Below, piece by piece: positions 30,677 to 54,047 of a stretch of 64,000 nucleotides of DNA. A model generated the notes under the pieces. The model ran no database searches, had not been told where the DNA came from, and worked only from the letters and a program-made list of their open reading frames with translations. Source of the stretch: an uncultured Planctomycetia bacterium (GTDB taxonomy: Bacteria; Omnitrophota; Gorgyraeia; Velamenicoccales; Velamenicoccaceae). A program made the position numbers and the translations under genes. Position 1 is the first letter of the stretch. Each line of letters starts with the position of its first letter. The DNA is taken from NCBI GenBank assembly GCA_964471325.1, contig CAYYFL010000008.1, positions 20,879 to 84,878 on the forward strand. Reading direction: 5' to 3'.

Positions 30677-31000
30677 ATGCAGATAAATATTATTGCAAAA
30701 CGGAGTGTGTTAAAGATGTGCGCTGTCCTGTGTCTGGTTTTGAGTCTTTCCCTGGCGCTCGCGCCTTTTGTCTTAGCGCAGGTGGATACGAGCCAGGAAC
30801 AGCAGGTTGTCAGTGATTTTGCCACTTTTATCATTAATATTCTCACTGGCCCTGTGTCAAAGATCTTAAGCGCGGTTCTGCTCATTGGAGGGGTGGTTGC
30901 GCTTTTAAACGGAAAACAAGGGGTGGCTATCGCGTGCGGTTTTGGGTTCATGATCCTGATGTTTATACCCAAGATCCTCCAAGGGCTGTTCAAAACATAA
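30677..31000 (+). CDS. VirB2/TrbC-type conjugative pilin precursor
   Basis: Long signal peptide ending LALAPFVLAQ, then two hydrophobic helices (ILTGPVSKILSAVLLIGGVVAL; VAIACGFGFMILMFIP), as in VirB2/TrbC pilins. AGGAGG lies 10 nt before ATG 30677. Confidence 0.55.
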   Translation: MQINIIAKRSVLKMCAVLCLVLSLSLALAPFVLAQVDTSQEQQVVSDFATFIINILTGPVSKILSAVLLIGGVVALLNGKQGVAIACGFGFMILMFIPKILQGLFKT

Positions 31001-31308
31001 TGAAAAAGTGCTGCCGGACCATCGATAGACCTTTGCTTCTTTTCGGCCTGGAACCAGAAGATGTAGGGATCCTGGCTTTGATCAGTGGTTTCTTGATCAT
31101 TTTCTTTGATCCTTTTTATGCTGGCACGGTTTTCTTCGGAGGATGGATACTTTTGAGAATAATGAAACAAGGTAAACCCCAGGGATATCTCGCGCACCTG
31201 TTTTATAAGCACGGGGTGAGGATTAAGGGTTTAATTGATCCGCCGGAACGCGTCGGACGGTATTCGGTTTTTGGGGGAGGTGATCGCGATGCAGATGCAG
31301 AGCTTTAG
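31000..31308 (+). CDS. traL: TraL-like (VirB3-class) T4SS inner-membrane protein
   Basis: IDRPLLLFGLEPEDV resembles F TraL RWFGLPLDEL. KQGKPQGYLAHLFYKHG ... PPERVGRYSV parallels F TraL KKGRGSSWLRDLIYWY ... VPDSCFRQWI. Confidence 0.6.
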   Translation: MKKCCRTIDRPLLLFGLEPEDVGILALISGFLIIFFDPFYAGTVFFGGWILLRIMKQGKPQGYLAHLFYKHGVRIKGLIDPPERVGRYSVFGGGDRDADAEL

Positions 31309-31480
31309 TCTTTTGGAATTGGCGTTAATCGTTTTGATGATTATTTTCTATTTTCTGCCGACCCTGGTGGCGTACTTTAGGCAGCACAAAAACATTCCGG
31401 CTATTTTTGTGCTTAATCTTCTTTTGGGCTGGACTGTTTTGGGATGGGTGAGTTCTTTAGTGTGGTCTTTCATGAAATAA
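31289..31480 (+). CDS. superinfection-immunity (Imm, PF14373-like) small membrane protein
   Basis: FYFLPTLVAYFRQHKNIPAIFVLNLLLGWTVLGWVSSLVWSF matches the YFLPxxxA...N.LLGWT.xGW signature. GGGGGAGGTG RBS. Overlaps the traL end by 20 nt. Confidence 0.7.
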   Translation: MQMQSFSLLELALIVLMIIFYFLPTLVAYFRQHKNIPAIFVLNLLLGWTVLGWVSSLVWSFMK

Positions 31481-31728
31481 ACATATATGGATTTTGTATT
31501 TAACATTTAAGTTGACAAAGGACTTCGTTTTACTATGCTGCTCAAGAGGATTTTGTTATGAACTTGTCCTCAAATAATCTTGATGCTGTATCTTATTATA
31601 TATAAGATAGTTATAATAAATACTGAATTCAAGTTAAAATAATGCATATTTGACTTGATATTTATGTTATGTATGTTATATTTGTTATGGAGGCTGCTAC
31701 TTATTATTATAACCAAAAGGACGGCTAA

Positions 31729-32127
31729 ATGGACATAATAATTACGTCTTGGGCTCTGGATTCGTACTTAGAAATGAAGCATAATAGAGTATTCAGCAAA
31801 GAAGAATATAAAAAGATCATTCGTCCAGATGTATTACGACTTAGGGATTATCCTGATGATCCCAAGTTTGAAAACGAAAAATTTTGGTCGATTGTCGCTG
31901 ATCAAAGTCATAATAAGATTGAAAATGGCTATAAAATGAAATGGCATCAAATTGGCAGTGGCAAAATTCAACTTCGTTTGACTGTGGGAATGTTTTGCAA
32001 TGCTTTTCTTTGCGAGGCATATGTCAAAAGAAATCCGAAGGCGGAACAAAGAAAAATAGCGCGTTTCAAGGTGTTTTTACAATTAATAAGACAAAGTCAA
32101 TATACTGAGAATGGGAGATTATCATGA
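31729..32127 (+). CDS. putative HigB/Gp49-like toxin (RelE/ParE superfamily), uncertain
   Basis: The C-terminal part IQLRLTVGMFCNAFLCEAYVKRNPKAEQRKIARFKVFL resembles the Gp49/HigB pattern (RilY...f.KKt.Ktp..ei..A). ATGA-coupled to a downstream HTH protein. Lies in a very AT-rich tract. Confidence 0.4.
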   Translation: MDIIITSWALDSYLEMKHNRVFSKEEYKKIIRPDVLRLRDYPDDPKFENEKFWSIVADQSHNKIENGYKMKWHQIGSGKIQLRLTVGMFCNAFLCEAYVKRNPKAEQRKIARFKVFLQLIRQSQYTENGRLS

Positions 32128-32618
32128 GAACCGGTGCGTTATTATCAGCCGATAGAAGTGTAGAGCTTATTGAAATAGGACACCAAATGAAACAAAGGGG
32201 GTTGTCTGATGTATTTATTGCAGCTGCCGTTCAGACAGCTTTCGAATTTGAGGGGGTTTATGATTTAATGAAAATGTGGTCAGAAGAGTCGGAGAAAAAA
32301 GAACAAGATGAAGTTATCGCTGATATACAAGAGATGATTGATGAATGTTCTCAGAAAGAAAAGATCGAAGGGACCTATGTGCGTTTTGACGATTTAGATC
32401 AAATTGCCAAAAACATTCGTTCTTTCAAAGATAGCTTGCGAATGATCGTCGAAAAAAAGGGTGGAATTAAGATGGTTGCAGATTTAACCGGCATCCCTCA
32501 GCCATCATTATCTAGATTTTTTAATTCTAGATCGATACCAAGAAGGATAACTTTGTTAAAAATTGCGAGGGCTTTAAATTTGAGCCAGATCCAAATTGCT
32601 ACTGAATGGAGTAGATGA
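32124..32618 (+). CDS. XRE-family HTH protein (putative HigA-type antitoxin/regulator)
   Basis: C-terminal helix-turn-helix VADLTGIPQPSLSRFFNSRSIPRRITLLKIARALNLSQ. Confidence 0.55.
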   Translation: MRTGALLSADRSVELIEIGHQMKQRGLSDVFIAAAVQTAFEFEGVYDLMKMWSEESEKKEQDEVIADIQEMIDECSQKEKIEGTYVRFDDLDQIAKNIRSFKDSLRMIVEKKGGIKMVADLTGIPQPSLSRFFNSRSIPRRITLLKIARALNLSQIQIATEWSR

Positions 32619-32677
32619 AAGAATGTCGTAACTGTGGAATGTGAACATAAAACATATATTCCTATGTTTAAAAAAAA

Positions 32678-32705
32678 CTTGACAAAACGATCTGAAGGTG
32701 TAAAT
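32678..32705 (+). promoter_or_regulatory. candidate sigma70-type promoter
   Basis: TTGACA (32678-32683), 16 nt spacer, TAAATT (32700-32705), in an ORF-free gap. Confidence 0.4.
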
Positions 32706-32711
32706 TAATAA

Positions 32712-32838
32712 TAGATAATTTGGTGTAAGGAGAATCAGAAGCGCGGATTCTCTCTAAAGTTTCAAAAGCAGTCCTATTGGAACAACCAAGGGGCTGGTTT
32801 CTTGAGGTAAAACTCAAGAAGCCAGCCCTTTTTTATTT
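32712..32838 (+). ncRNA. candidate ~125-nt small RNA or attenuating leader upstream of traE
   Basis: Bounded by the promoter above and a strong terminator. It has an internal 7-bp hairpin GAGAATC(32729-35)/GATTCTC(32745-51). No start codon follows the TAAGGAG at 32725. Confidence 0.3.
32791..32838 (+). terminator. rho-independent terminator
   Basis: GGGCTGGTTTCTTGAG / CTCAAGAAGCCAGCCC 16-bp stem (one G.U), 6-nt loop, then TTTTTTATTT. Ends 9 nt before the traE ATG. Confidence 0.75.
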
Positions 32839-32846
32839 GCCCAGAC

Positions 32847-33470
32847 ATGCCAAAATCACTGGAACACAATGAAACTACTAAACGCCCGACTTTCCTTGAG
32901 AAATGGGCCCGGGCTGAACAGACCAGCGCGTTTTTAGGTATGGCCCTTTACGCCTGCATCGCCTTCTGTCTGGCTCTTCTTATCACGGTCTTTAAGTTAT
33001 CCACAAGGTCGCAACCTATTTACTATATTCCAAGCTCGCATGAAGCGGGGATCTCCTATCCGAATCGAATAGAAAAAGAGGCTGTCTGCGCCTTTGCCTC
33101 AAACTGGCTGCTAGACCGCAATAACTTCACTTCCATCACAGTCAAGGAGACCTATGCAAGGGCCATGCGCTACATGGCGCCTGCGCTTCTTTCAAGAACA
33201 AGGGCTGGTCTTGAAGATGAGATTGGCCGGGTTTTGCGCGATAACATTTCATCCTTGTTTTCTTTAAGCCAAGATCCCCAATGGGAGCAATCTGGTAAAG
33301 AATTTAAGGTGATATTGACCGGAGAAAAGTCACTCTTCATGGGAAAAGAAAAACTGGATGACCGCAGTCTTCGCTACACGATCACCTTAGAGAGGGTCTC
33401 TCCGGTTCAGACCAACCCTTATGGCCTGGTTATTGCAGGGGTCAAGCAAGAGCAGATAGGAGAACAATGA
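32847..33470 (+). CDS. traE: TraE-like (VirB8-class) T4SS protein
   Basis: A single N-terminal TM (FLGMALYACIAFCLALLITVF) followed by a periplasmic domain. DNISSLFSL parallels F TraE DNVNSAFFQ. Ends NPYGLVIAGV. No SD is visible before the ATG. Confidence 0.55.
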   Translation: MPKSLEHNETTKRPTFLEKWARAEQTSAFLGMALYACIAFCLALLITVFKLSTRSQPIYYIPSSHEAGISYPNRIEKEAVCAFASNWLLDRNNFTSITVKETYARAMRYMAPALLSRTRAGLEDEIGRVLRDNISSLFSLSQDPQWEQSGKEFKVILTGEKSLFMGKEKLDDRSLRYTITLERVSPVQTNPYGLVIAGVKQEQIGEQ

Positions 33471-34213
33471 GAATATCCATCGCAGCTCTTCGTCCTTTTG
33501 GGATATTTTGCATTCTGTTGATTGTTTTTGGATTGGTCCTGACGGACGCGTTTGGAGAATCCGCGGCTGTTAACGGCAGCGAAGATGTCATCCCTTTGCG
33601 GTTGAAAACCGGCATGGTGACGCAGGCAGAGTTCCCAGAAAAGATTGCCGATGTCACAAAGAGCATTTCTTCGGATTTCCTTCAGGTCGAGACCCTCGGT
33701 AACAGGATGTTTTTGCTGCCGCTTAAAAGTTTTGATTCTTATCTTCATGTCGTCACAGAAGGAAATACTTCCTACTGCTTGCATTTGATCATGGACAATG
33801 TCGAGGCGCCTACTTCTATTGAGATCAAAAAAAGACCTCAAGCCAGGAAAGAGACCCAAAATCAGGGAACCTTTAACACGGTTGAGCTAATGAGGATGCT
33901 TCTAAAAGGAGAAGTGCCGCCAGGGGCAGCGAGTGCAGGGTCCAGCATACATGAGGTCTTCAATAACGGAGTTTTCCGCATAACAACGGATAAGGTTTAT
34001 GAGCTTGGAGGCGGGGCCAAAGCGCTGGTGTTGCGTTTTGAGAACCTAATGGATAAGCCCATTGTGCTGCCTATAGAAGATATAGAGCTACCGGGGTTAG
34101 TCGCAGCCAGCGTGGATACCCAGGTTTTGGGGCCAAGGCCCCGCAGCCAAGCTAAAAACAGTGCCGATTCCATGACAAAGGCCTACATGATTATTGAGGC
34201 GCAGGATCAGTAA
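33467..34213 (+). CDS. traK: TraK-like (VirB9-class) secreted T4SS core protein
   Basis: Signal peptide, about 248 aa, sited between traE and traB with an ATGA overlap as in F-type operons. The call rests mainly on synteny and size. Confidence 0.5.
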   Translation: MRISIAALRPFGIFCILLIVFGLVLTDAFGESAAVNGSEDVIPLRLKTGMVTQAEFPEKIADVTKSISSDFLQVETLGNRMFLLPLKSFDSYLHVVTEGNTSYCLHLIMDNVEAPTSIEIKKRPQARKETQNQGTFNTVELMRMLLKGEVPPGAASAGSSIHEVFNNGVFRITTDKVYELGGGAKALVLRFENLMDKPIVLPIEDIELPGLVAASVDTQVLGPRPRSQAKNSADSMTKAYMIIEAQDQ

Positions 34214-34223
34214 AAAAATATCC

Positions 34224-35456
34224 ATGACCAAAATCTCGTTTAAGGACATTCCTAGCTTTAATATTGTGGCATCGATACTAAGCCATAAGCCGCGGCCGGT
34301 TATCTTAGCGGTCTGCGGCTTGGCTATCGTTTTAGGATTCCTGGCTTTTAGCGGCGTCAAAGAGACCAAAAACATCAAAAAAAGCCTTACGACACCTGAT
34401 CGTTCTAAGGCAAAAACCAACCCTGAAGATAAAGATGTGGGTGTCCTTGTAGGCTCTGTAGATACCAAGACATATGTTTCCCGCATTGAAAAACAATACT
34501 ATGACATATCCTCGCGTCAGGACAATAGCGAAGCCCGCCTGGCAGAGCTGGAAAAAGACATAGCCGGCCTGCGAAAAAACCAGTCTGAGATAAGCAAGAT
34601 TATCGTGGATCTTGACAAAAGGGTGACGACTGCGCTGTCTGAAAGCATAAATTCAGGCAAGCCAGGTTTCCAAGAGAACCAGGAAGCTGGCAATGAGGGG
34701 ATCCTGGGTAATCCGTTGTCCGGGATAGCATCGGTCAAGCCAGCGATGCGCCTGGAGATGGCCAAAGTCAGCGAGATTAGAGGAGAAGCCGATGCTTTGA
34801 AAAAAAGATGCGTTTACCTGCCTTTGGGGAGTTTTGTCAAAGGCACTCTTTTGACCGGAGTCTATGCGCCTGTGAACGTCAACAATCCTCTGCCTGTCTT
34901 GATCAGCGTGGATGAGGCTTTTTACGGCCCTAATAACACAAGGATCCCCTTAAAAGGAGCTTTTGCCATTGGCAAGGCCATAGGTGATGTTGTCTCCAAG
35001 AGGGCCATCATCCAGATCGTCGGTTTTTCGGTCGTGTTGCCTGGAGGCAATACTTTTGAGCATGAGGGTAATTTAGGGTATCTGACAGACGAGACCGGCC
35101 GCCTGGGCATCCCAGGAGAGTTGATCTACAACACAGGTAAGCAGCTATCCTTGAGTTTTATCTCAGGGTTCTTGGCAGGAGGGGCCGAAGCGCTCTCTCA
35201 GGCGCAGACTTCAACCGTGGTCGGCGCCTACGGTCAGACTGCTCAAAACGTCACAGGCAATACAGGTAATTATGCCATGTTCTCAGGGCTGGCTAACAGC
35301 GCCCAGGGCATGGCCTCGTATTATCAAAAACAATTGGAGGCCATGATCCCTGCCATCAAGATCGAAGCTGGAACAAAAGTGACCCTGGTCATCCAGAAAG
35401 GGGTGGAAATTGAAGGCCTTAAAGCTTCTGTTGACGATTTCGATTATGTTGATTAG
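34224..35456 (+). CDS. traB: TraB/TrbI/VirB10-family T4SS core protein
   Basis: N-terminal TM, coiled-coil/Pro-poor linker, C-terminal barrel region GTLLTGVYAPVNVNNPLPVLISV...IPGELIYNTGKQL typical of the VirB10 family. Confidence 0.75.
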   Translation: MTKISFKDIPSFNIVASILSHKPRPVILAVCGLAIVLGFLAFSGVKETKNIKKSLTTPDRSKAKTNPEDKDVGVLVGSVDTKTYVSRIEKQYYDISSRQDNSEARLAELEKDIAGLRKNQSEISKIIVDLDKRVTTALSESINSGKPGFQENQEAGNEGILGNPLSGIASVKPAMRLEMAKVSEIRGEADALKKRCVYLPLGSFVKGTLLTGVYAPVNVNNPLPVLISVDEAFYGPNNTRIPLKGAFAIGKAIGDVVSKRAIIQIVGFSVVLPGGNTFEHEGNLGYLTDETGRLGIPGELIYNTGKQLSLSFISGFLAGGAEALSQAQTSTVVGAYGQTAQNVTGNTGNYAMFSGLANSAQGMASYYQKQLEAMIPAIKIEAGTKVTLVIQKGVEIEGLKASVDDFDYVD

Positions 35457-35814
35457 TTCCGGCTGCGCGGCTTCCCACAAGGTGGTTGTCAGCGGAGCTC
35501 AGGATAAGGTGATGGACGCGTATCTTTCCGCTGTGAGTTCAGGCAGGCGTGATTCTGGTGAGTTCATCAAGGACAAGTTAAAACTCAACAAGGCATTCGG
35601 ATATGTCGCGCCTTATGTGCCTGTCATTGAGCCCGCGGATGTCAGACTTGTCTGGATCCCGGCTCATAAGTCAAAAGAGGACAAAGATACCTTAGTCGCT
35701 GGCCACTGGATATACGTCATGGTGAAAGAATCAAGCTGGTTCATCGATTCCCAGAAGCAGGACAAAGCGAGGATCCCTTTATTGGTTCCTTACAAAGAAA
35801 CTGTCGCGAAATGA
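35410..35814 (+). CDS. traV: TraV-like outer-membrane lipoprotein
   Basis: TTG start. Lipobox MLISSGC. The C-terminal VRLVWIPAHKS...GHWIYVMVKESSWF parallels F TraV ALWIAPYID...SVFFVIKPSAW. Overlaps traB by 47 nt. Confidence 0.6.
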   Translation: MKALKLLLTISIMLISSGCAASHKVVVSGAQDKVMDAYLSAVSSGRRDSGEFIKDKLKLNKAFGYVAPYVPVIEPADVRLVWIPAHKSKEDKDTLVAGHWIYVMVKESSWFIDSQKQDKARIPLLVPYKETVAK

Positions 35815-38348
35815 TCAAAACCCAAACCCTTGAGTCGTTCTTTGAAGAAGGCAGGTCTTTCACAGACCTTCTGCCTTATTACACTCATGAAAACGGCTTG
35901 TTTGTTCTCAAAGACGGCAGCATGGGCCAGATCTGGGAGATTTCGCTGATTGAAAGCGAGACGAAATCCGCAGACCACCTGGAGGAGTTATCCCGGTCCC
36001 TGGAAGGGATTCTCCTGAGGCTGCCTGAAGATATGGTCAGCTGCCAGTTCATCCTGGTTTGCGATGAGGATTTCAACGACAGGATAGAAACTTATCAAAA
36101 CAATGGAGGGCCTTTTGACAACGAGATCATCAAGAGCTGCAGTCAAAGCAAGATAAAACACCTCAAGGAGGGAAAGGACGGTTTTTTTGAGCAGGCAGCC
36201 GGCAGCTATTGCTCCAAAAACATACGTTGTTTTTTCACCTTGCGGTATTTTCCGTCATGGGTCTATCCGGCCTTCGGCGATAAGGTCCATTTTTATTTCA
36301 CAGGCAAAGATACGATCGGAAAAAAGATCGAAGAGGATTTCCTGGTCTACTGCCAGACCATTGCCCGCTTCTGTGAAGTCGTAGAGGGGGTCTTTAAGGC
36401 CTGTGAGATCAGCTATCAGAAGGTAGATGAAAGGCAATTGCACAAGCTTCTCTACAAGATGCTTAATCCGAAACGCAGCCAAGGCACGGGCATTCCTGCG
36501 TTAAGAGAAGATGAATATATGTATGATCAGCTTTTGTACAATGCACCACGCGTTTACGGGGAAGGGTTCGAATTCGAAGACAGGCGTTATCAGGTTGTGA
36601 CCTTGAAGGAGCTGCCTTTGGCTACGGAACCAGGCATGTTCAGCGCTGAAGTCGTCCGCGGAACGCGCTTTTCCCTGTTGGATATGCTTAAAGATTTCAT
36701 CATGGTGGTCAATTTCCATATCCCGAAACAGGAGGAAGCCATAAAAAGGATCAAGATGCAGAAGGCTTTTGCCTTCCTGCAGCGCTCCACGTATTTCGGA
36801 GATAAGTCCATTGAGGCCCTGGAGAAAAAGGAAGAACTGGATTCCGTAGTCAAGGAAACCTTCACCTCAGGCCATAAGATCATCTATCCCAGGATCCATT
36901 TCATCATCTCAGGGGAAACCCAGGAGTCTTGCGACAATCTGACAGCCAACATGCTGAACGCCCTCTCGCGCATGGGCGCTGAAGGCTTAAAAGAAGAGAT
37001 TATCGGTGCGTCGCTGTTTTTATCGTGCCTGCCTTTGTGTTTTGACCATCATTACGAGCGGTTCATCAAGCGCACCAGGCGCATGGTTTCAAGCAATCTT
37101 AGCGACATGCTTCCCTTGTACGGCTCAGTCCGAGGGACCCAGACGCCAGCCCAGCTGTATCTGAACAGAAGGGGCGAGCCTGTATTCTGGGATTTTTTTG
37201 ATTCCAACACAAACCCGCATACAATCGTGATCGGCGCCTCAGGCTCAGGCAAGAGTTTCTTCGTGAATGACTTCATCCTGCAGAATGCGCGGCTGGATTC
37301 GCATTTCTTTGTCCTGGACAAGGGAGATTCCTACAAGAAGCTCTGCTCAGTTTTAGGGGGCCAGTACATAAGGTTTGAGTTGAATGACCCCGTAACCATC
37401 AATCCTTTTTTAAAAATGCCGGATGCAGAGCACCTGGCTTTTTTGGTGACCATGTTATCCCAAATGTGCTCAGGCGGCGATGAACGCGAAAGGCTCCTGC
37501 GCGAGCACGAAGGCGTGCTTCAGCAGGCGATACTCGCTGCCTATAAGGACAGGAAAGCCAAGGACGAGGAACTGGTTCTGTCAGACGTGGTTGAGAAGCT
37601 TAAAAGCCACAGCTGCAACAGGAAGCTCGGGGTTGGCGAAAGCATTGGCATAAAGCTTGCTTTGAAGCTCAGGTCTTTTACCAAGGAAGGGCCTTTTGGC
37701 AAATTCTTCGACGGGAAAAATCAGTTCAGCCTTGGCGCCAAGTTCACTGTCTTTGAGCTGGGGAATCTAAGTGCTCATCCTGACCTGCAGGTGGTGGTCC
37801 TCTTAAACATCATGTATTTCATCACTCATTTTGTCTCGCAGCCCGAAATGAGGCCTAAACGGAAATTCCTTTTGATTGATGAGGCCTGGAGTCTCTTGAA
37901 ACTTCAGAATACGGCGGAATTCATCACCAATTCGTTTAAGACGTACCGCAAATACCGCTGTTCCTGCTGCGCCATAACGCAGGAGATCACTGACTTAATA
38001 GGAAAAGAGTGCGGCATCGCCATCCAGGCCAATGCAGCCAACAAAGTGTTTTTAAAACAGGAGCCCAATGTCATCGACTCCTTAAAAGGTTTTGCATCGT
38101 TGTCTGAAAAAGAGATCGAACTCCTGAAGTCTGTCGAGACCCAGAAAGGGAGATTCTCGGAAGCCCTCATAGTCTCGGATTCATCCCGCGGCGTCATCCG
38201 CCTCGTGCCGGATCCTTTCCTTTACTGGCTGGCAACAAGCGATGCCAAGGACAACGGATACTTGGAGGACAAATTGCAGAAGTTTGGCGACAGGTATTTG
38301 GAGGCGCTTTCAGAATGCGCCGAGGAGAAACCTTATGGTCTACGCTAA
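35811..38348 (+). CDS. traC: TraC/VirB4-family T4SS ATPase
   Basis: Walker A IVIGASGSGKSFF, Walker B KFLLIDEAWSLL. 845 aa, as for F TraC. Confidence 0.9.
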   Translation: MIKTQTLESFFEEGRSFTDLLPYYTHENGLFVLKDGSMGQIWEISLIESETKSADHLEELSRSLEGILLRLPEDMVSCQFILVCDEDFNDRIETYQNNGGPFDNEIIKSCSQSKIKHLKEGKDGFFEQAAGSYCSKNIRCFFTLRYFPSWVYPAFGDKVHFYFTGKDTIGKKIEEDFLVYCQTIARFCEVVEGVFKACEISYQKVDERQLHKLLYKMLNPKRSQGTGIPALREDEYMYDQLLYNAPRVYGEGFEFEDRRYQVVTLKELPLATEPGMFSAEVVRGTRFSLLDMLKDFIMVVNFHIPKQEEAIKRIKMQKAFAFLQRSTYFGDKSIEALEKKEELDSVVKETFTSGHKIIYPRIHFIISGETQESCDNLTANMLNALSRMGAEGLKEEIIGASLFLSCLPLCFDHHYERFIKRTRRMVSSNLSDMLPLYGSVRGTQTPAQLYLNRRGEPVFWDFFDSNTNPHTIVIGASGSGKSFFVNDFILQNARLDSHFFVLDKGDSYKKLCSVLGGQYIRFELNDPVTINPFLKMPDAEHLAFLVTMLSQMCSGGDERERLLREHEGVLQQAILAAYKDRKAKDEELVLSDVVEKLKSHSCNRKLGVGESIGIKLALKLRSFTKEGPFGKFFDGKNQFSLGAKFTVFELGNLSAHPDLQVVVLLNIMYFITHFVSQPEMRPKRKFLLIDEAWSLLKLQNTAEFITNSFKTYRKYRCSCCAITQEITDLIGKECGIAIQANAANKVFLKQEPNVIDSLKGFASLSEKEIELLKSVETQKGRFSEALIVSDSSRGVIRLVPDPFLYWLATSDAKDNGYLEDKLQKFGDRYLEALSECAEEKPYGLR

Positions 38349-38787
38349 AAGATTTGCAGTTCTATTTTCCATCTTATGGCTGGCCGGTTGTTGCTCTTTG
38401 GGTCCAGCGGTAAAGAAGAGAAACGACTATGAACAGGGCTACAGGCAAGGAGTCCATGAGAATATCCATGATTTTGCCCAGAGTTTCTATGGCAACGAGT
38501 TTCCTTATTTTTACTGGCAGAGCCCTGTTGTCCAGAATGTGAATATCCCGGCTCATATTGAGAACGGGTTATTCATTCCTGAGCATAATGAGCCGGTCAT
38601 GATTGAGCCTGGTGCATGGAGAAAGAGATTCGGCTACCCGATTAGGGTTGCGAAGAATAAGCCGGACAAAACAGAAGGAGAGGATTATGCGCTCAAGTAT
38701 TTTGATTTTGATAGCAGGGATATTACTGTGTTTCCCGAATCCTACGCAGGCGATAAACCAGGAAACGAAAACAAAGATTCTCGCTAG
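38335..38787 (+). CDS. lipoprotein upstream of secretin (PilM-position; possible pilotin)
   Basis: MVYAKRFAVLFSILWLAGC lipobox. GAGGAG RBS. The 3' 101 nt overlap the secretin ORF in another frame. Confidence 0.45.
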   Translation: MVYAKRFAVLFSILWLAGCCSLGPAVKKRNDYEQGYRQGVHENIHDFAQSFYGNEFPYFYWQSPVVQNVNIPAHIENGLFIPEHNEPVMIEPGAWRKRFGYPIRVAKNKPDKTEGEDYALKYFDFDSRDITVFPESYAGDKPGNENKDSR

Positions 38788-41409: not shown

Positions 41410-41428
41410 GCGGAAGGAGGTGGAACCG

Positions 41429-41656: not shown

Positions 41657-41729
41657 CGATCAATCAAAGAGCTCATCCGGTGCATTTAGGGCCGGATGAG
41701 CTTGGAGATTTTTTAAGAAAATAAATCCC

Positions 41730-42215: not shown

Positions 42216-42234
42216 GAAAAAGGAGGATGCCCGC

Positions 42235-42855: not shown

Positions 42856-42858
42856 AAT

Positions 42859-45705: not shown

Positions 45706-45718
45706 AAGGAGGTGGACA

Positions 45719-46144
45719 ATGAGGAACAAGAAGGGTTTTACGTTGATCGAACTGGTCCTGGTCATCAGTATCATCGCGCTTCTCATCATGGCCGTGGGTC
45801 TGGCTTCAGGTGTCAGGGAAAACGCCAAGATCCACTCAGCCGCGGAGTCCGTCAAGTCTTTAAGGACTGCTGCGGAAAGCTACATTGCTTCAGGCAAGAT
45901 AACGTATGAGGGGATTGCAGTTTCCGAACTAAAGACTGCCGGCTACTTACCCGAGAGTTTTTCGGAGACAGGATCAAATCCGTGGGGAGGGGATTACGCG
46001 GTCGTACCGGACACAGACCCCAGCAAGGTGGATATCTCCTTAACACAGGTCAGTACTTCCGGCGCAGCACGGCTTTCAGCCTTGTTTGCCAACAGCGCGA
46101 CAGCAACGAGCTATTCATCCGGAACATGGACTGCGACATTCTGA
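45719..46144 (+). CDS. type IV (pseudo)pilin with class III signal peptide
   Basis: MRNKKGFTLIELVLVISIIALL: prepilin cleavage/methylation motif G|FTLIE. AAAGGAGG RBS. Confidence 0.85.
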   Translation: MRNKKGFTLIELVLVISIIALLIMAVGLASGVRENAKIHSAAESVKSLRTAAESYIASGKITYEGIAVSELKTAGYLPESFSETGSNPWGGDYAVVPDTDPSKVDISLTQVSTSGAARLSALFANSATATSYSSGTWTATF

Positions 46145-46596
46145 AAAAGGATGGTTTTAGCTTAATTGAACTGAGCCTTGTTTTCGCGATAGCTTTCCTA
46201 TCGCTGGGGGCGGCTTTTTATTCTGCGGCCAGAATGAGGCAGAGCGCTCTAGCCATGAGGACGATCCAGGAGCTGGATGCCTTGGCGAGCGCAAGCGCTC
46301 AATATTACCTGGAGAGCGGGGCGTGGCCGCAAGATGTGGCGGATCTGCGGCCCGCCTACCTCAGTCCTCAGGCAACAGACGTTAATCCTTTTGGCAATGT
46401 TTATGCCATAACAGGCGGCGCCTCAAGCGTCACTGTTTCGACAGCGCTGCCGAAGGGGCTCATAACGCCTGAAAATTCTGGCAGCGAGATTGTGGTTCAG
46501 AATCAAGGCGCCAATGATCTGGTCAGCGTCGCAAGGTCCGTTGAGAGCACAACGTGGGGACTGCAGTATGACAAAAAGAATATCTTCCATCAATAA
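46126..46596 (+). CDS. type IV minor pilin
   Basis: MDCDILKKDGFSLIELSLVFAIAFL: prepilin motif G|FSLIE. Overlaps the previous gene by 19 nt. Confidence 0.75.
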   Translation: MDCDILKKDGFSLIELSLVFAIAFLSLGAAFYSAARMRQSALAMRTIQELDALASASAQYYLESGAWPQDVADLRPAYLSPQATDVNPFGNVYAITGGASSVTVSTALPKGLITPENSGSEIVVQNQGANDLVSVARSVESTTWGLQYDKKNIFHQ

Positions 46597-47401
46597 AAAG
46601 GGATTTTCCTTAATCGAGCTATGCATTGTGATGGGGGTTTTGGCCATCCTTGCTTCATCCATCACGCCGGTCTTTATCAAAAGGATTCAGATCAAGGCAG
46701 CTGAAAAGACCGCGCTTGAAATGGCCAATATCCAGCAGGCGGCTTGCGCTTATTTTGTCACAAACGACGCCTGGCCTGACAGTATTCAGACGCTGGAAAC
46801 AGCGGGCTATCTTAATCCTTCTTGGAGCGCCAACAATCCCTGGCAGAATGCGTATAACATTTCATCGACGGCAACAGGCTTCAGCATCACGACTGTGGTG
46901 CCTCAGGAATGGACCAATCTTGTCGCAGGAAACTTGCCTACGAGCTCGGTCGCCGGCGGATCCGTGACGAGCACGGTTTCGGTGCCGGGGGCTATGCCTA
47001 ATGAATCGCTTCCTGCAGGCGCCATCGTCATCTGGTCCGGAACTGTTGCCAGCATTCCTTCGGGATGGCAGCTCTGCGATGGGACCAACGGTACGCCTGA
47101 TTTAAGGGACAGGTTCGTCGTAGGAGCAAGCCGGGATGTGGGAAGTATGGCTGAGACCAATGTCTTAGGGGTTTTGACCAAGGCAGGAGGTGAGGCCAAA
47201 CATACCTTGACCATAGCCGAGATGCCCCCGCATGCGCACTCTTACCGCTGGTGGAACGCATGGTATTTCTCGGGTAGTTCCGAGCTTGGCGCTAAAGGCA
47301 GTTATAATGACAATGCCCAGACAGGTATTACAGGAGGCGGGCAGCCTTTTGATATGCTGCCGCCTTATTATGCCCTATGTTTTATCATGAAGATGCCTTA
47401 A
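46568..47401 (+). CDS. type IV pilin fused to phage tail-collar (PF07484-like) domain; candidate tip adhesin (R64 PilV-position)
   Basis: N-terminus KKGFSLIELCIVMGVLAIL. C-terminus GWQLCDGTNGTPDLRDRFVVG...GGEAKHTLTIAEMPPHAH...GGGQPFDMLPPYYALCFIMK reproduces the collar-domain signature (GW..CDG, PDLRgRf, GGe..h.Lt..e.P.H.H, qP..n.pPy....yiI). Confidence 0.8.
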   Translation: MTKRISSINKKGFSLIELCIVMGVLAILASSITPVFIKRIQIKAAEKTALEMANIQQAACAYFVTNDAWPDSIQTLETAGYLNPSWSANNPWQNAYNISSTATGFSITTVVPQEWTNLVAGNLPTSSVAGGSVTSTVSVPGAMPNESLPAGAIVIWSGTVASIPSGWQLCDGTNGTPDLRDRFVVGASRDVGSMAETNVLGVLTKAGGEAKHTLTIAEMPPHAHSYRWWNAWYFSGSSELGAKGSYNDNAQTGITGGGQPFDMLPPYYALCFIMKMP

Positions 47402-47619
47402 GGTTCAGGCGATTCCTGTTTTGTCTGTTTTTCCTGGCAGCATCTTCTTCGGTCTGTTTTGCTTCTCAGGATGTCATTGATTTGGGAGAGGAAGGTTTCA
47501 GTTGCCCTCTGACGCTTAGAGTCAATGAAAAGAGTTTGTCTGTGATAAACGAAGAAGCCAATGTTATTGCAGATTCAAGGTAGAATGGTTAGAAATCTAT
47601 TATCTTTGTGATCGTCGAC

Positions 47620-48132
47620 TTATATCCCGAGGGTCTTCTTGATGTCTTTTATTAAAAGATACAAGTGCAATGGATCAATCGGTGAAGGTTCAAAGCCGAA
47701 ATGTTCATAAAATGATTTAGCACGTTCGTGTTTCGCATGGACGAAAATAGCCCGTCCGCCAATACTGTCAGCCGCGGCAACAATGCGCACCAGCGCATCG
47801 CGCAATAAGGCTTTGCCTAGACCACTACCTTGTTCGATTTTATCGACAGCCAGGCGCGCAAGAATGACCACGGGGACAGGATGGTTGGCCAATCCTTTGC
47901 CTACGCGTTGAGGGGTATCCTCTTTGCTTATGGAGCCGGGGGTGAGGGTGTAATATCCCACAACCTGCTTATTTTTGGTTGTGACATAGGTTCTTGAAGA
48001 ACCATTTTGGTTATTGATGAGCGCAAATTTTCGCAGGTAGGAATTCAGGGCTTCATCCCCGCAATCAAAATCATCGATTGCGTGAGATTCATGGAGCAAA
48101 ACAGGAGTGTCTAAAGAAGATCCTTTACTCAT
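47620..48132 (-). CDS. GNAT-family acetyltransferase toxin (TacT/KacT-like)
   Basis: FDCGDEALNSYL, YVTTKNKQVVGYYTL and RLAVDKIEQGSGLGKALL are typical of DUF1778-partnered GNAT toxins. Overlaps the antitoxin stop by 8 nt. Confidence 0.8.
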   Translation of the reverse strand: MSKGSSLDTPVLLHESHAIDDFDCGDEALNSYLRKFALINNQNGSSRTYVTTKNKQVVGYYTLTPGSISKEDTPQRVGKGLANHPVPVVILARLAVDKIEQGSGLGKALLRDALVRIVAAADSIGGRAIFVHAKHERAKSFYEHFGFEPSPIDPLHLYLLIKDIKKTLGI

Positions 48133-48400
48133 TAAAAATGTTTTGTTCCTGGAAAAGCTTCTTAAGCCTGGGGATTTCTCTGGCCGGGCTATCAAGAGCG
48201 GCACAGAAGGCTTTCCATTGGGCTTGAGGCAGTTGGAAGTGGGTTTTGTCGGCTATCAATTCTTCCGCTTCTTTCAAGGCGCTATCGAGAACAAAAGCTG
48301 ATAGCTTCTTGTGATGAAGGGAGGCCGCATATACAAGAAGATTTTTTTGGGAGCTCTCAATGCGTAAATCAATACGTCTATTTTTTTGTGCTATGGCCAT
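48125..48400 (-). CDS. DUF1778-family RHH antitoxin (TacA-like)
   Basis: RIDLRIESSQKNLLVYAASLHHKKLSAFVLDSALKEAEELI matches the DUF1778 pattern. ATG 48400 is preferred to the track start. Confidence 0.85.
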   Translation of the reverse strand: MAIAQKNRRIDLRIESSQKNLLVYAASLHHKKLSAFVLDSALKEAEELIADKTHFQLPQAQWKAFCAALDSPAREIPRLKKLFQEQNIFNE

Positions 48401-48450
48401 GATTCGTCTCCTTTCTTTAGGTAATAAAAATATAACATATAGTACACACA

Positions 48451-49377
48451 TTGTCCACACTAAATTTAAAATATTTTAAAAAGGCATTTAGCCTCATTTT
48501 GTTGCTAAGCCTGTGTTTTGTTTCCAGCAGGGCTAATGCCCTTGAGCTTGGCGATATCTCCGGGATGATTGATTGGAATTGCCTGGATCTAAAGGTGATC
48601 GGAACCTGTGTTGGGCCTTTTGGCATGCCTGGCATTATCATTATGTACTGGGAGCCGGCACTTCTCATTGAAACTGTCAAGCGGCCCGGTGATACGGTTA
48701 TCGGATCGTTGCAACCCGAGCTCTCAAATCTTGTGACCCAGGCCGTCAAGGATTTCGCTAAAAGTTTAGGCGCATCATCCATGCCTGTTTCAAGCGGATC
48801 AGGCTCATCGAAGATCGATGAGACGAACCTGCAATTTAATGAGGCGCACGTGTATGGGCTTCCTTTTAAAGATGAGATTATGGCATCTTTGGGCATGACA
48901 TGCCCGGACAAGCTTCCGACAGGTTCTTTGATCAAATATCTTTCAGAACTGGATGCTTCGGAGTGGCGAATTGGGGTTCTGGAAGCCTCTAACCCCAAGA
49001 GCATGGCTTCAGCTGCAGCTGGCCCGGCCTGCGCTGTGATAGCCAGTTTTATGAATGATTTGTGCATGGGGTATTGGGGAGCGACCTATCCAAGAAGAGG
49101 CTTTTTTACGCATCAAAGCCAGGTCGTAGGAAGCGCGGTTGCAGCGGTCCGGGCTGTGAGCATTGCTTCAGGTTTAAATATACCTGGACATGTTGTTTTT
49201 GAAGGCACTGGTTTTGTGCCGTTTTTTGAAAACGACAAGCTGCAATTGATTTATCCTGTTGTATCAGGGTGCATCAAAATAGGCCAGAATCCGGCATCCT
49301 GGGAATCCGGCAAGCTGTCCGCTTCAGGCAAATACCTGTGGCTGTATTGGCGAAGAAGAATATGCTGCGTGTATTAG
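48451..49377 (+). CDS. traU: TraU-like periplasmic T4SS protein
   Basis: Signal peptide. MYWEPALLIETVKRPGD parallels F TraU SMWEPARLIEFQRVPGC. TTG is the only possible start before the signal peptide. Confidence 0.75.
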   Translation: MSTLNLKYFKKAFSLILLLSLCFVSSRANALELGDISGMIDWNCLDLKVIGTCVGPFGMPGIIIMYWEPALLIETVKRPGDTVIGSLQPELSNLVTQAVKDFAKSLGASSMPVSSGSGSSKIDETNLQFNEAHVYGLPFKDEIMASLGMTCPDKLPTGSLIKYLSELDASEWRIGVLEASNPKSMASAAAGPACAVIASFMNDLCMGYWGATYPRRGFFTHQSQVVGSAVAAVRAVSIASGLNIPGHVVFEGTGFVPFFENDKLQLIYPVVSGCIKIGQNPASWESGKLSASGKYLWLYWRRRICCVY

Positions 49378-49877
49378 GTGTCAGTTTCTTTGTGTTGTTG
49401 GTGGTTTTGCCTTTGGGCTTTTGCCAGGAGAGCGATTGCAGCGAATGTTCTAAAGGCATAGCTGATCTAAATCCTGGCTTAAAGGAAAAAATAGAGGAAA
49501 TACAGAGACAAGCCTATGACAGGATGAGCGGGGTAGGGCAAGATCAGAATTCCGAGATTATATTATTCATCGATCCGGATTCCGACTTTTCAGACACCGT
49601 TGTCAGCGCTCTTGTGAATTTCAAAAAAGAGAATCCAGGATGGATTGTCAAGACTGTCATTGTTACCAATGATAAGCAGGGTTTGAAGAACAGGCTGATT
49701 CGGAAACGGGATTATTTCAATAACGGTATGGAGTTCGATATTGACTTTAATGGTAATCTGACAAGGCAGTTTGGCATCGATAAGACTCCTAGCTATGTCA
49801 TTTTTCGTGATGGGAAGCATTGCATAATAACAGGCCGGACTGATCTGAGCGAGATCATTGAGCAGCTTAATAAATGA
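49362..49877 (+). CDS. TrbC/TraW-like periplasmic T4SS assembly protein
   Basis: Signal peptide. ILFIDPDS and FDIDFNGNLTRQFGIDKTPSYVIF resemble the F TrbC/TraW pattern (vFvS.SMP ... IdP.lF..f.I..VPa.V). Confidence 0.5.
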   Translation: MLRVLGVSFFVLLVVLPLGFCQESDCSECSKGIADLNPGLKEKIEEIQRQAYDRMSGVGQDQNSEIILFIDPDSDFSDTVVSALVNFKKENPGWIVKTVIVTNDKQGLKNRLIRKRDYFNNGMEFDIDFNGNLTRQFGIDKTPSYVIFRDGKHCIITGRTDLSEIIEQLNK

Positions 49878-50605
49878 GATGTCTTTTGATATTGATTACT
49901 TTGTTTGTCTATACGCCTTTTGCCTGTAGTGAGGGGATGTTTCAATACGACAGGATCGATTTTTTTAAAGAACCGGATGCAAGAAAAGATATTGTTTCAG
50001 AACCAAGGCGGAAGAACTTTGAATCAATAGAGAGCGAATGGGCTGAGCCTGTTGTCAATCCTTCAGGCGAAGTGACTATTTATGTACCGCCTAAAGAGGT
50101 GAGGGATTTTCTTGATAAACCTGATCCTGAAAATGCCAGAGCATACCTCGAATGGAACTTAAACAGGATCAGAAAATTCGTCACGGCCCAGGAGATGCTT
50201 GCCAAACAAGCAGAGACGCTTAATCAGCCAGAGAAAGACAATGGTGCGGCGGACGCAGATTCGCATCAGACGAATTCGACAAACGGTGCTTCCAAAGATT
50301 CTGTCCCTCAGGGAGATTACCTGTTTTTCTTTATGTTAAAAGGCTGTCTTGCCTGCGAAAAAGAAGCCCGCGTCATAGAAAGCATCTATCTCACCCACCC
50401 TGAAATCAGGATCCAGGCTTTTGCCAGAGGTTTTGGCGATGACGACTTGAGAAAATTTATGTTTCCTGCGATAGAGGATAAGGGGATGAGCGCCTTATTC
50501 AAGATCGAGTCTTATCCGACGATCGTCGTATTTAACAGTAAAAGACAAAAGTATTTCCTCTCTGGACTTGCGGACAAAGAGAAGATACTAAAATTATTCA
50601 GATGA
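49874..50605 (+). CDS. traF: TraF-like thioredoxin-fold T4SS protein with CxxC
   Basis: LFFFMLKGCLACEKEARVIE ... FPAIEDKGMSALFKIESYPTIVVF follows the F TraF pattern (fFF.s.C..C ... fP....d.G.a..l.v...Pa). Confidence 0.65.
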   Translation: MRCLLILITLFVYTPFACSEGMFQYDRIDFFKEPDARKDIVSEPRRKNFESIESEWAEPVVNPSGEVTIYVPPKEVRDFLDKPDPENARAYLEWNLNRIRKFVTAQEMLAKQAETLNQPEKDNGAADADSHQTNSTNGASKDSVPQGDYLFFFMLKGCLACEKEARVIESIYLTHPEIRIQAFARGFGDDDLRKFMFPAIEDKGMSALFKIESYPTIVVFNSKRQKYFLSGLADKEKILKLFR

Positions 50606-51882
50606 AAAGGATCATTCTTTTGTGGATCTTTGTCTTTATCGGCGCTTGTGCAAGCTATGCGGATATCTTCACAAAAGACGATTCAACGCCTTATACCATT
50701 GAGAGCGCGGTTTCGGAAGATAATTCAGGGTTTTATTACAGAGGGGGCGTTGACTATAATCCTCCGGTTGCCCCGCAAGAGCCCGGCGTAGGCTATTCCA
50801 TTGTCAGCGGATCAAAAGGTTGCAGCGGCTTCGATTTTGCCTCAAGTTTCACGTCGCTTTTCTCCCAGCAGATATTAGAGGACTATTTGAAGGGTATATC
50901 CAGTGCTGCCATGGCAGCTGCGCCGATGCTGCTTTTAGAGTATGTTTCGCCGACCTTGGCGGATATCGTAAAACATTTCAACAGCATGACGAATATGAGG
51001 TTGGGTTTAAGATATGCCCAGTGCGAGGATATCGAGAAGGCGGCTGGCGCCTACATCGACAAGTTAAGGAAAACAAGCGAAGACGTGTGCGTCAAAGAGA
51101 AGGTGGCCCAGGGCTTTGATATCGATTCAGCGCTTAAGGTCTGCAAAGGCAAAAGTGATCCGTTTGCATACCTGAAGAATGCCGATGGTATTCCTCTGCT
51201 AGGGGGAGGCAAGATAGAAGTTATTTCCGATATCTTAAAGAAGATAAATATTCCTGAAGGCAGGAAGGATTTCGTCAAGTCGGTGGTCGGTGAAACCACC
51301 ATCACGTCTTCGCAGATTGAGAACAATAAGGGACAGAAGTCTATCTACAGTGTGAATGAAGATTTTAGGAACGATGCTATGGCCAAGCTTGCGTCCTTGG
51401 TGGATGGGTATATTACATCAAGAAGCATTTCAGAGGATGCGTTAAAAGAAATTTCACTGCCGAATAGCCCGATAGTTGACGAACAGATTAAAGAGATTGT
51501 TCTTATGCCAAGGGCAAAGCAGTACATAGCCATTGCCAAGTTAGCTTCTAACATGGCCTATTTTCAAACCATCGCCAAATACCGCCAGGCCCTGGACGAT
51601 CTGCTTGAGGCCATGCGTACATCAGGTCTTGATGATGTGCAGCGAGGGGTCTTGGAGAGGGGCTATAACGCTTTAAAAGAAGAATTCGAAAGATTCAAGG
51701 AGGAAAGGCAGATCTATAAAGATTATAATGAGACAATAGCAGGTGTCTTATCGGAGGCCGAGAGAGAAAAGCTAAATATTATCATCAACGATGATGGAAC
51801 GGATTCGTATTTTAACGATTCCACAGAAAATCAGGACAAAAAAGAGATGTATCTGTCCGTATCCGAAGAGAAAAAAGAATAG
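50602..51882 (+). CDS. traH: TraH-like T4SS protein
   Basis: Signal peptide. GCSGFDFASSFTSLFSQQILEDYLKGISSAAMAAAPMLLLEYVSP parallels F TraH GGCGGIDLYLGSFSFINKEQLVQMLRNIASNAAGYAFQLALDAMCP. Confidence 0.7.
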   Translation: MKRIILLWIFVFIGACASYADIFTKDDSTPYTIESAVSEDNSGFYYRGGVDYNPPVAPQEPGVGYSIVSGSKGCSGFDFASSFTSLFSQQILEDYLKGISSAAMAAAPMLLLEYVSPTLADIVKHFNSMTNMRLGLRYAQCEDIEKAAGAYIDKLRKTSEDVCVKEKVAQGFDIDSALKVCKGKSDPFAYLKNADGIPLLGGGKIEVISDILKKINIPEGRKDFVKSVVGETTITSSQIENNKGQKSIYSVNEDFRNDAMAKLASLVDGYITSRSISEDALKEISLPNSPIVDEQIKEIVLMPRAKQYIAIAKLASNMAYFQTIAKYRQALDDLLEAMRTSGLDDVQRGVLERGYNALKEEFERFKEERQIYKDYNETIAGVLSEAEREKLNIIINDDGTDSYFNDSTENQDKKEMYLSVSEEKKE

Positions 51883-54039: not shown

Positions 54040-54047
54040 GGGTTACT

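Follow-up and report, generated by a model that had tools for sequence, protein, structure and literature searches.

What is a set of pilus genes doing in the middle of a conjugation operon? The question is raised by a 64,000-nt stretch of DNA (hereafter the window; feature positions are window coordinates, on the + strand unless stated) from a Candidatus Omnitrophota bacterium, in which a gene set resembling the type IV secretion system (T4SS) of the F plasmid is split between traC and traU by a near-complete set of type IV pilus (T4P) genes. An initial annotation had proposed this layout, and scans of the window's open reading frames (ORFs) with Pfam and NCBIfam hidden Markov models, together with scans of orthologues from related loci, recovered every gene it named at or near the position given. 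The genes for a TraG_N protein, a MOBC-like protein and a coupling protein sit just upstream of its start at 30677. We think it probable that the locus encodes the mating apparatus of an integrated, probably conjugative element, the embedded pilus being predicted to capture recipients in place of TraN and the C-terminal domain of TraG (TraG-C). The F-like genes are as follows.

25985-27355, +: TraG_N (VirB6-like) protein; PF07916, 58.7 bits (cut-off 36.1), profile positions 33-458 of 462
27599-28366, +: MOBC-like replication-relaxation protein, candidate relaxase; PF13814, 27.2 bits (cut-off 25.3)
28344-30614, +: type IV coupling protein (TraD/VirD4-like); TraG-D_C, TrwB_AAD_bind and T4SS-DNA_transf, SXT_TraD subfamily 93 bits
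30677-31000, +: VirB2/TrbC-like conjugative pilin; PF04956, weak (E = 1e-3)
31000-31308, +: TraL (VirB3-like); window protein without a match, 14 of 14 orthologues match PF07178 (best E = 4e-8)
31289-31480, +: small membrane protein of the superinfection-immunity family; PF14373 on the precomputed gene call
32847-33470, +: TraE; PF05309, 31 bits (cut-off 24.8)
33467-34213, +: TraK (VirB9-like); window protein without a match, orthologues match TraK_N (6), TraK_C (3) and CagX (3)
34194-35456, +: TraB (VirB10-like); PF03743 (TrbI) 77 bits, F-type TraB model 81 bits
35410-35814, +: TraV lipoprotein (VirB7-like); PF09676, 24.9 bits (cut-off 21)
35811-38348, +: TraC (VirB4 ATPase), F type nearest; PF11130 TraC_F_IV, 95 bits (cut-off 28)
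48499-49377, +: TraU; PF06834, 113 bits (cut-off 26.5)
49413-49877, +: thioredoxin-like periplasmic protein (TrbB-like); Thioredoxin_2, weak, matched by 14 orthologues
49874-50605, +: TraF-like thioredoxin-fold protein with a CLAC motif; PF13728, 22.3 bits (cut-off 23)
50602-51882, +: TraH; PF06122, 44 bits (cut-off 25)

Among NCBIfam models TraC scores best on TIGR02746 (381 bits, below the 567-bit equivalog cut-off), ahead of the generic VirB4 model (221) and of PFL_4706 (171), the type found in integrative and conjugative elements (ICEs). PF04956 is matched by 12 of 14 orthologues of the VirB2/TrbC-like pilin (best E = 3e-6), TraA being unmatched, and PF13728 by 15 orthologues of the TraF-like protein (best E = 1e-6); traL retains its position in 29 loci. 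The TraK profile matches TrwF/VirB9 weakly (E = 0.07), and the MOBC-like protein matches the NCBIfam MobC subfamily at E = 5e-8, under the cut-off. On the 922-residue F TraG model the match of the TraG_N protein is restricted to positions 318-458, with no F-type C-terminal domain, and TraG-C was not found elsewhere in the window. No ORF of the element inside the window matches TraN or TraW; the element extends beyond position 64000. The initial annotation had called the system F type, which TraC, TraB, TraU, TraH, TraF and the core genes bear out and which the lack of a TraA-type pilin, TraN, TraW and TraG-C does not. Judged by these scores, the T4SS appears to be deep-branching and F-like, and the label holds with the caveats that TraC is only ~25% identical to its best plasmid counterpart, that the pilin is VirB2/TrbC-like, and that TraN, TraW and TraG-C are absent from the window.

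The type IV filament block fills nine kb (38335-47401) between traC and traU, and is followed by a gene pair on the opposite strand.

38335-38787, +: secretin-associated lipoprotein; lipobox LAGC, kept in 45 loci
38687-40234, +: secretin; PF00263, 130 bits
40231-41409, +: GspL / PilM-PilN-like bitopic assembly protein, 392 aa; AlphaFold model and Foldseek
41429-41656, +: 75-aa cytoplasmic protein; gene call
41730-42215, +: 161-aa protein with an N-terminal transmembrane helix, GspM/PilO-like by position; gene call
42235-42855, +: 206-aa secreted protein, GspB/PilP-like; orthologue matches to T2SSB
42859-44499, +: GspE/PilB-type assembly ATPase with an MshEN-like N-terminus; PF00437 (T2SSE), 365 bits
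44500-45705, +: GspF/PilC platform; PF00482 (T2SSF), 158 bits, two domains, GspF 212 bits
45719-46144, +: major prepilin, 141 aa, leader MRNKKG followed by FTLIE; N_methyl 32.5 bits, PilS_N 23.1 bits
46126-46596, +: minor prepilin, 156 aa, leader MDCDILKKDG followed by FSLIE; N_methyl in 7 of 10 orthologues
46568-47401, +: adhesin-type prepilin, 277 aa; N_methyl and Collar
47620-48400, −: TacA antitoxin and GNAT toxin (TacAT-type) pair; GNAT families, PF08681 TacA1 on the gene call

The ATG of the lipoprotein gene at 38335 gives a 14-nt overlap with the stop of traC. In L022, L024, L026 and L032, four of the related loci, the core motif of the lipoprotein is the N-terminus of the secretin ORF (one fused ORF), so that the drift of the iterated lipoprotein profile onto secretins reflects real biology. 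The secretin scores highest on MshL among NCBIfam models (222 bits, cut-off 250), followed by PilN-IVB TIGR02520 (163, cut-off 288) and GspD (138), and among solved structures on BfpB (85 bits; GspD 67, PilQ 66). The 392-aa protein has no sequence-level match in Pfam or NCBIfam, and its sequence profile found nothing among PDB sequences; its AlphaFold model (pLDDT 70.6) retrieved cyto-GspL first in Foldseek (E = 1e-8, TM-score 0.62) and then PilM and EpsL, which argues for a protein of the GspL or the fused PilM-PilN type. The GspL-like and GspM-like proteins form a single ORF in L023 (14106-15647) and L047 (2834-4381). The small-protein genes at 41429-42855 are conserved in position in 31-50 loci, and six orthologues, probably of the 206-aa protein (the scan was a mixed one), match PF16537 T2SSB.

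The assembly ATPase scores 383 bits on the NCBIfam model of GspE and 375 on that of PilB; its MshEN match (17.4 bits, cut-off 23.1) and its c-di-GMP motif domain (31, cut-off 38) are under threshold. A search of a representative library found relatives named 'PilB' and 'GspE/PulE' at 36-38% identity. The nearest relatives (P0243-P0258) also include ~1000-aa proteins in which GspE-like sequence occurs twice (37-40% identity), apparently as tandem double ATPases. The two pilins and large adhesin-like pilin of the initial annotation were all confirmed as prepilins, with leaders of 6, 10 and 12 residues and with Phe at +1 and Glu at +5 in all three. The C-terminus of the 277-aa pilin is homologous to phage tail-fiber collar/receptor-binding domains (PDB 9qgo, 4e-11; 6ov6, 3e-10; 9nxk, 3e-9), and its residues 221-260 vary most. 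The major pilin matches Bundlin (19.8 bits) and PilS_N (23.1 bits) weakly, and matches of the pilins to the GspG and GspH models are weak and confined to the N-terminal helix. A weak terminator-like hairpin (47406-47427) lies 3' of the last pilin gene. The initial annotation had seen no TraN, clear TraW, prepilin peptidase or lytic transglycosylase, and none was found in the window, nor was a retraction ATPase (PilT); the prepilin peptidase must be supplied by the host.

Which kind of pilus is this? The initial annotation had read it as a complete type IVb cluster of the R64 kind. The order of R64 is pilL/N-O-P-Q-R-S...V, and the succession of secretin, large bitopic protein, small proteins, ATPase, platform, pilin and adhesin in the block is collinear with it. 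Besides this order, a residual type IVb affinity is visible in BfpB as the nearest solved secretin, in the fused lipoprotein-secretin of the four relatives and in the weak PilS_N/Bundlin matches. The type itself was for the most part not upheld. Against PDB sequences the ATPase scores 307 bits on GspE, 254-285 on the type IVa PilB/PilF and 131 on the type IVb BfpD, and it is 42-43% identical to plasmid GspE vs. ~31% to ATPases of the type II secretion system (T2SS)/T4P family from ~60-110 kb enterobacterial plasmids, which we take to be IncI-type PilQ. Short prepilin leaders are a trait of type IVa pili and T2SSs, type IVb leaders having ~15-30 residues. No protein of the block matches the Pfam or NCBIfam families of the PilL, PilM, PilO and PilP of R64 and PAPI-1, and no PilT transglycosylase, PilU peptidase, recombinase or shufflon repeats were found in it. 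All NCBIfam scores of block proteins are below the equivalog cut-offs. From these relationships we conclude that the block is a type IV filament machine of unassigned subtype with a GspE/MshL-like core and not an R64-type IVb pilus, because its ATPase is GspE/PilB-like, its leaders are short and the accessory families are unmatched.

The second step is to ask whether the interleaving is peculiar to the window. All close TraC homologues come from Candidatus Omnitrophota, among them a copy 89% identical to window TraC in the complete genome of 'Ca. Velamenicoccus archaeovorus' LiM (CP019384.1, about 600-640 kb). Scanning genomes yielded 50 Omnitrophota loci and a TraH-seeded scan of metagenomes a further 80, and the element family is widespread in the phylum. 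The best plasmid TraC is only ~25% identical, the plasmid matches listed all being annotated as F-type TraC or TraC/VirB4-like ATPases, and the 21-kb region had no megablast match among plasmids or E. coli genomes. The initial annotation had proposed looking for the same interleaved order in other genomes, and it is there: the junction of traC with the lipoprotein/secretin occurs in 45 loci, that of pilin with traU in 45, and both in 10. Among Omnitrophota loci with at least 2.5 kb past traC the secretin follows traC directly in 36 of 39, and the ATPase is present in 18 of the 26 with at least 7 kb; in the metagenome loci the order is invariably secretin...pilins-traU-traH wherever the upstream sequence is long enough. 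Gene order from TraG_N to TraH is conserved among related loci, and the pilus block is retained at TraC identities as low as 46-50%. The interleaving is far beyond chance and recurs in related loci.

The pilus genes also share their history with the tra genes. Pairwise divergence correlates with that of TraC at r = 0.97-0.98 for GspE, GspF and the secretin and at 0.99 for TraB, values inflated by clade structure. Median junctions between the modules (traC-lipoprotein -14 nt, pilin-traU ≤38 nt) are as tight as those within them (traV-traC -4, gspE-gspF 0), and the G+C content of the pilus block equals that of traB-traC. In F systems trbI-traW occupy the interval between traC and traU, and in the nearest relatives outside Omnitrophota, which are gammaproteobacterial F-type loci, traU lies 0.7-2 kb past traC with no pilus genes between. 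The conserved order, tight junctions, co-divergence and pilus-free nearest F-type relatives together argue that the block was acquired once, early, and has since been co-inherited with tra. The tra and pilus genes would form one transcription-level unit, with co-transcription predicted from the junctions. Of the co-directional, possibly co-transcribed block in the initial annotation, the tight packing stood, as the junctions in relatives show, and the single direction is broken by the TacAT-type pair on the - strand. A sigma-70 promoter scan of the window did no better than on shuffled sequence, the consensus not being valid for this phylum.

The third question is what carries the operon. The following features delimit and fill the element.

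25784-25984, no strand: approximate left end of the element; contigs of other metagenomes begin matching here, and G+C content drops
51883-56791 (genes 52366-56658), +: cargo, namely a HATPase_c_3 (MORC/GHKL-like) protein, two unknown proteins and a D12 adenine methyltransferase; G+C content 0.37
56792-64000, +: conserved distal backbone, running off the window; covered at 90-97% in other metagenomes up to 64000
27421-27594 and, as an inverted copy, 56792-56965, no strand: 174-nt repeat; copies 97% complementary

Contigs from three other metagenomes (X2, X3 and X5) align with the window at 90-99% identity, starting at 25784-25806 and continuing to position 64000, and do not match the left flank at 23.6-25.7 kb. 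The G+C content is 0.52-0.56 left of ~25.78 kb, drops to 0.46 at the element end and is 0.37-0.51 rightwards. The genes to the left are chromosomal housekeeping genes, the last (DUF819) ending at 25628. Where a sequencing run contains the window at 100%, one contig passes from chromosome into element without a break and at even depth; the element is present at 100% in the activated-sludge run behind L142. The LiM homologue sits in a complete chromosome, and single metagenome-assembled genomes (MAGs) hold up to four TraC copies. The cargo at 51873-56813 is absent from the related locus L061 and from X2, X3 and X5, and relatives carry other defense or toxin-antitoxin genes in the interval after traH (NTase-HEPN, AbiE, type I restriction-modification, methyltransferases), with a C-5 methyltransferase and a HATPase_c_3 protein at this spot in L072; the window cargo is probably a defense or restriction-like system. 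Because it is integrated, found elsewhere without its flank, provided with swappable cargo and multi-copy in MAGs, the region behaves as an integrative mobile element, with a coupling protein and a MOBC-like protein that point to conjugation.

In the probable case of a conjugative element, one ancestral operon would encode two machines, an F-like T4SS and a type IV filament machine. The pilus would display its tail-fiber-like adhesin, catch a recipient cell and then hold it against the donor, and the T4SS with the coupling protein would move relaxase-bound single-stranded DNA into the recipient. The pilus would thus supply the mating-pair formation and stabilization for which F has TraN and TraG-C, and its role would be comparable to that of the thin pili of R64 and TP114 and of the PAPI-1 pilus. 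Conjugation assisted by or dependent on T4P has precedent (PMC12857230).

How new is the arrangement? A 2025 review gives IncI plasmids, PAPI-1 and Saccharibacteria as the known partnerships of T4SS and T4P (PMC12857230). The IncI plasmids R64 (IncI1) and TP114 (IncI2) likewise pair a conjugation system with a type IV pilus bearing a dedicated tip adhesin, and their pilus genes also run from lipoprotein/secretin to adhesin pilin. They are thought to catch recipients with the pilus (PMC12857230). They differ in having an I-type (Dot/Icm-like) T4SS and a separate pil cluster, whereas the window has an F-like system with the pilus inside the tra operon and a pilus with a GspE/PilB-like ATPase and short leaders but no PilL/M/O/P, shufflon, PilT transglycosylase or PilU. 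ICEs of the PAPI-1/ICEclc type (G type) are similar as integrated elements with a type IV pilus in their transfer machinery, and window TraU and TraH score somewhat better on the ICE-family models TIGR03756 and TIGR03755 than on those of F plasmids; however, TraC (381 vs. 171 bits) and TraB (81 vs. 48) clearly favor F-type models, the pilus subtype differs, and the pil cluster of PAPI-1 is a separate block. F, pED208 and F-like plasmids share TraL, E, K, B, V, C, U, F, H, TraG_N and a TrbB-like thioredoxin, essentially in the F order. Unlike them, the window has a TraC of ~25% identity and a VirB2/TrbC-family pilin, TraN, TraW, TrbC and TraG-C were not found in it, and its traC-traU interval holds ~9 kb of pilus genes vs. 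0.7-2 kb in the nearest F-type relatives.

MSHA pili, T2SSs and type IVa pili (T4aP) share the GspE/PilB-type ATPase with MshEN-like N-terminus, the GspF platform, a GspL/PilM-N-like protein, the MshL-like secretin and short-leader prepilins, but the window block lacks PilT and a peptidase, has a BfpB-related secretin and a tail-fiber tip pilin, and lies inside a conjugation operon. The T4SS and T4P of Saccharibacteria (Patescibacteria) are of monoderm type, in separate loci and not on mobile elements. What Saccharibacteria have in common with the present case is an ultra-small, host-dependent bacterium with both a T4SS and a T4P (PMC12857230). A 2026 survey of Omnitrophota described an integrative element without conjugation machinery, and in the Omnitrophota literature searched T4aP and Tad pili are reported and no conjugation system or T4SS-pilus cluster is described. 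A pilus block inside an F-like tra operon therefore seems to be an undescribed layout: pilus-aided conjugation is known from IncI plasmids and PAPI-1-type islands, with separate clusters, an I- or G-type T4SS and a type IVb pilus, and what would be new here is the position of the pilus genes, their GspE/MshL-like make, the phage-tail-fiber tip and the stability of the arrangement through deep divergence. For Omnitrophota, a candidate phylum without cultured genetics, this is perhaps the first recognizable family of conjugative elements (no published description was found), and such elements could become vectors for a phylum so far not manipulable. They also offer a natural experiment on the replacement of F-type mating-pair stabilization by TraN and TraG-C.

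Several observations weigh against a conjugative element with a recipient-catching pilus. The MOBC-like match barely exceeds its Pfam cut-off (27.2 vs. 25.3 bits), and neither an integrase, att sites nor a canonical HUH relaxase is present in the window, the right end of the element lying outside it; tRNA and Rfam scans of the window gave no match, and so it contains no tRNA-linked attachment site. TraN could sit past the right end of the window. Since the block has no retraction ATPase, pulling the recipient close is unproven. One metatranscriptome has short low-depth contigs on both the tra and the pil module that could be DNA carry-over; they are compatible with expression, are not decisive and do not show co-transcription. 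Where TraC identity is 46-50%, neither a coupling protein nor a relaxase is encoded in the 5 kb upstream of the cluster, and its neighbors are ordinary genes, e.g., for an ABC transporter and TPR proteins, so that part of the family may be domesticated. In L038 and L039 (TraC 37-39%) only traB-traV-traC-lipoprotein-secretin-gspL remain, between threonyl-tRNA-synthetase-, dnaN-, dnaA- and secA-like genes (a by-eye reading of N-terminal sequences); this minimal cluster is either a remnant or a domesticated core, and not every family member looks conjugative.

Other reduced variants bear on whether the two gene sets make two machines or one. Five MAGs (L028, L030, L031, L034 and L046) have traC-lipoprotein-secretin-gspL-gspM-traH alongside the T4SS core and lack the ATPase, platform, pilins, traU and traF; L047 keeps traC-lipoprotein-secretin-gspL~gspM in a permuted gene order; and L016 (TraC 50%) has lost the genes from secretin to pilin and retained the lipoprotein. 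Since it is retained across variants, the lipoprotein-secretin-GspL trio is the constant partner of TraC, and this constancy keeps alive the reading of a single chimeric machine. In its wider form, which we hold tentatively as a lesser possibility, a T4SS core based on VirB4, VirB10 and VirB7 would work through or with the secretin and a GspL/GspM-type platform as a hybrid nanomachine by which Omnitrophota nanobacteria dock on cells and exchange macromolecules. If this were true, the conjugative elements would be one lineage of a phylum-wide apparatus that is also domesticated in chromosomes, reduced versions included.

In its narrower form, the secretin, lipoprotein and GspL/GspM-like proteins would be envelope parts of the T4SS, or the pilus would be the DNA conduit, as has been modeled for PAPI-1. 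This too is unlikely in our judgment. It is favored by the most invariant linkage of the family being traC-lipoprotein-secretin-gspL(-gspM), by the five MAGs keeping exactly these genes with the T4SS core, by L047 preserving the linkage through its permutation, by L038 and L039 and by the lone lipoprotein of L016, and by the overlap of the traC and lipoprotein genes. However, the outer-membrane core usual in F-type systems (TraK, TraB and TraV) is present, so the T4SS should need no secretin, and loci without ATPase and pilins may be served in trans by T4aP genes of the host or be in decay. The reduced variants give concrete form to the question of whether components of a T4SS and of a type IV filament are ever built into a single machine.

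That in these ultra-small episymbiotic or predatory bacteria the T4SS and pilus mainly attach to larger host cells and inject or extract macromolecules, as an apparatus of host or prey interaction and not of element transfer, we regard as doubtful. The cluster is spread across Omnitrophota down to 37-50% TraC identity, and its divergent versions lie among ordinary chromosomal genes, with neither a coupling protein nor a relaxase in the vicinity. 'Ca. V. archaeovorus' lives as a predatory epibiont and has been proposed to pass molecules into its prey (PMC13153191), T4P are regarded as symbiosis factors in Omnitrophota (PMC10066038), and in Saccharibacteria both the T4SS and the T4P are essential for epibiotic growth (PMC12857230). 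A tail-fiber-like adhesin could equally bind host cells. However, the version in the window has a coupling protein, a MOBC-like protein and a sharp integrated end, its occurrence in other samples without the flank, swappable defense cargo and multi-copy MAGs are the behavior of a selfish mobile element, and no link of tra genes to predation was found in the Omnitrophota literature searched.

A T2SS, whose short periplasmic pseudopilus would export proteins with no surface pilus, is very improbable. The top score of the ATPase is GspE, the top structural match of the 392-aa protein is the GspL fold, orthologues match GspB, and the pilins have weak GspG/GspH matches and short leaders; yet only D-, E-, F-, G-, L-, M- and B-like proteins are present in the block, without GspC or the minor pseudopilin set GspH-I-J-K, the secretin is nearest to the pilus secretins MshL, PilN and BfpB, a 277-aa pilin with a receptor-binding domain fits the tip of an exposed fiber, and the block conserves no gene for a candidate exoprotein. 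Least credible is a recent secondary insertion of an unrelated pilus island: the operon does tolerate insertions, as its small inserted modules show (TacAT, 47620-48400; HTH pair, 31729-32618), but conservation of the arrangement down to 46% TraC identity, co-divergence with TraC, overlapping coding junctions and a G+C content equal to that of traB-traC effectively refute it, and no mobility genes, which the initial annotation had named with att sites as signs of such an event, and no flanking repeats were found for the block (an ancient insertion in the ancestor of the family belongs to the favored reading of a mating apparatus).

The small modules themselves are of limited distribution. The TacAT-type pair between the last pilin gene and traU is found only in the window and LiM and is absent from most relatives. 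Between traL and traE the window alone has an insertion (31729-32831, +; G+C content 0.38) with a 132-aa ORF and a helix-turn-helix (HTH; HigA/antidote-like) protein, absent from all related loci; HTH_3 is matched, with dnstrm_HI1420 ('addiction module antidote') under its cut-off, and the gene pair (31729-32618) is followed by a terminator-like hairpin with a 19-bp stem (32788-32831). It is probably another toxin-antitoxin pair. In the five reduced MAG clusters and in L032, a 960-1290-aa secreted protein without a Pfam domain is encoded right after traH or the GspB-like gene, and may be an alternative adhesin.

The 174-nt inverted repeats bracket the whole tra-pil-cargo segment, one copy immediately preceding the MOBC-like gene. 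Both L061 (91%) and LiM (80%) conserve the repeat, short-read assemblies break there, and its fold is unexceptional (z = -2.2); it is a candidate origin of transfer (oriT) or site of recombination. The repeats might also act as a switch that inverts the whole tra segment, although the gene orders of relatives (L082) are at odds with a simple inversion. A ~200-nt repeat (57619-57825 and 58990-59196) immediately precedes small genes on the + strand (57871-58176 and 59247-59531) whose ribosome-binding sites are strong. Folded as a single strand of DNA, the repeat gives an extended imperfect hairpin (dG = -49 kcal/mol; z = -6.0 and -3.3); the motif TTGTGGTCTGCCTCAA occurs in it twice, and it is also found in L061, L083, L136, L095, L069, L071 and L082. 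These hairpin repeats resemble the single-strand promoters of plasmid leading regions, a likeness that would place oriT nearby.

Downstream of the cargo hotspot, the distal backbone encodes a response regulator and, at 59704-62574, DUF6876, a 79-aa ubiquitin/ThiS-like ORF, a 200-aa unknown protein, a ThiF/E1-like protein and a JAB protein (weak PRTRC_A match); this PRTRC-like cassette is conserved in the element family. In the chromosomal flank crcB is followed by a DUF190 gene (12487-13283), with no fluoride riboswitch at the Rfam threshold. One clear member of the Omnitrophota cluster family, L031 (DYOU01000021.1), is labeled 'Candidatus Elulimicrobium sp.' (Patescibacteria group at NCBI), which could be a binning or label issue or a cross-phylum transfer. 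A single metagenome, Ga0265297, holds at least 12 distinct traH-bearing backbone variants (L062, L076, L085, L091, L094, L096, L097, L102, L104, L113, L131 and L138), which shows a high within-community diversity of the element family.

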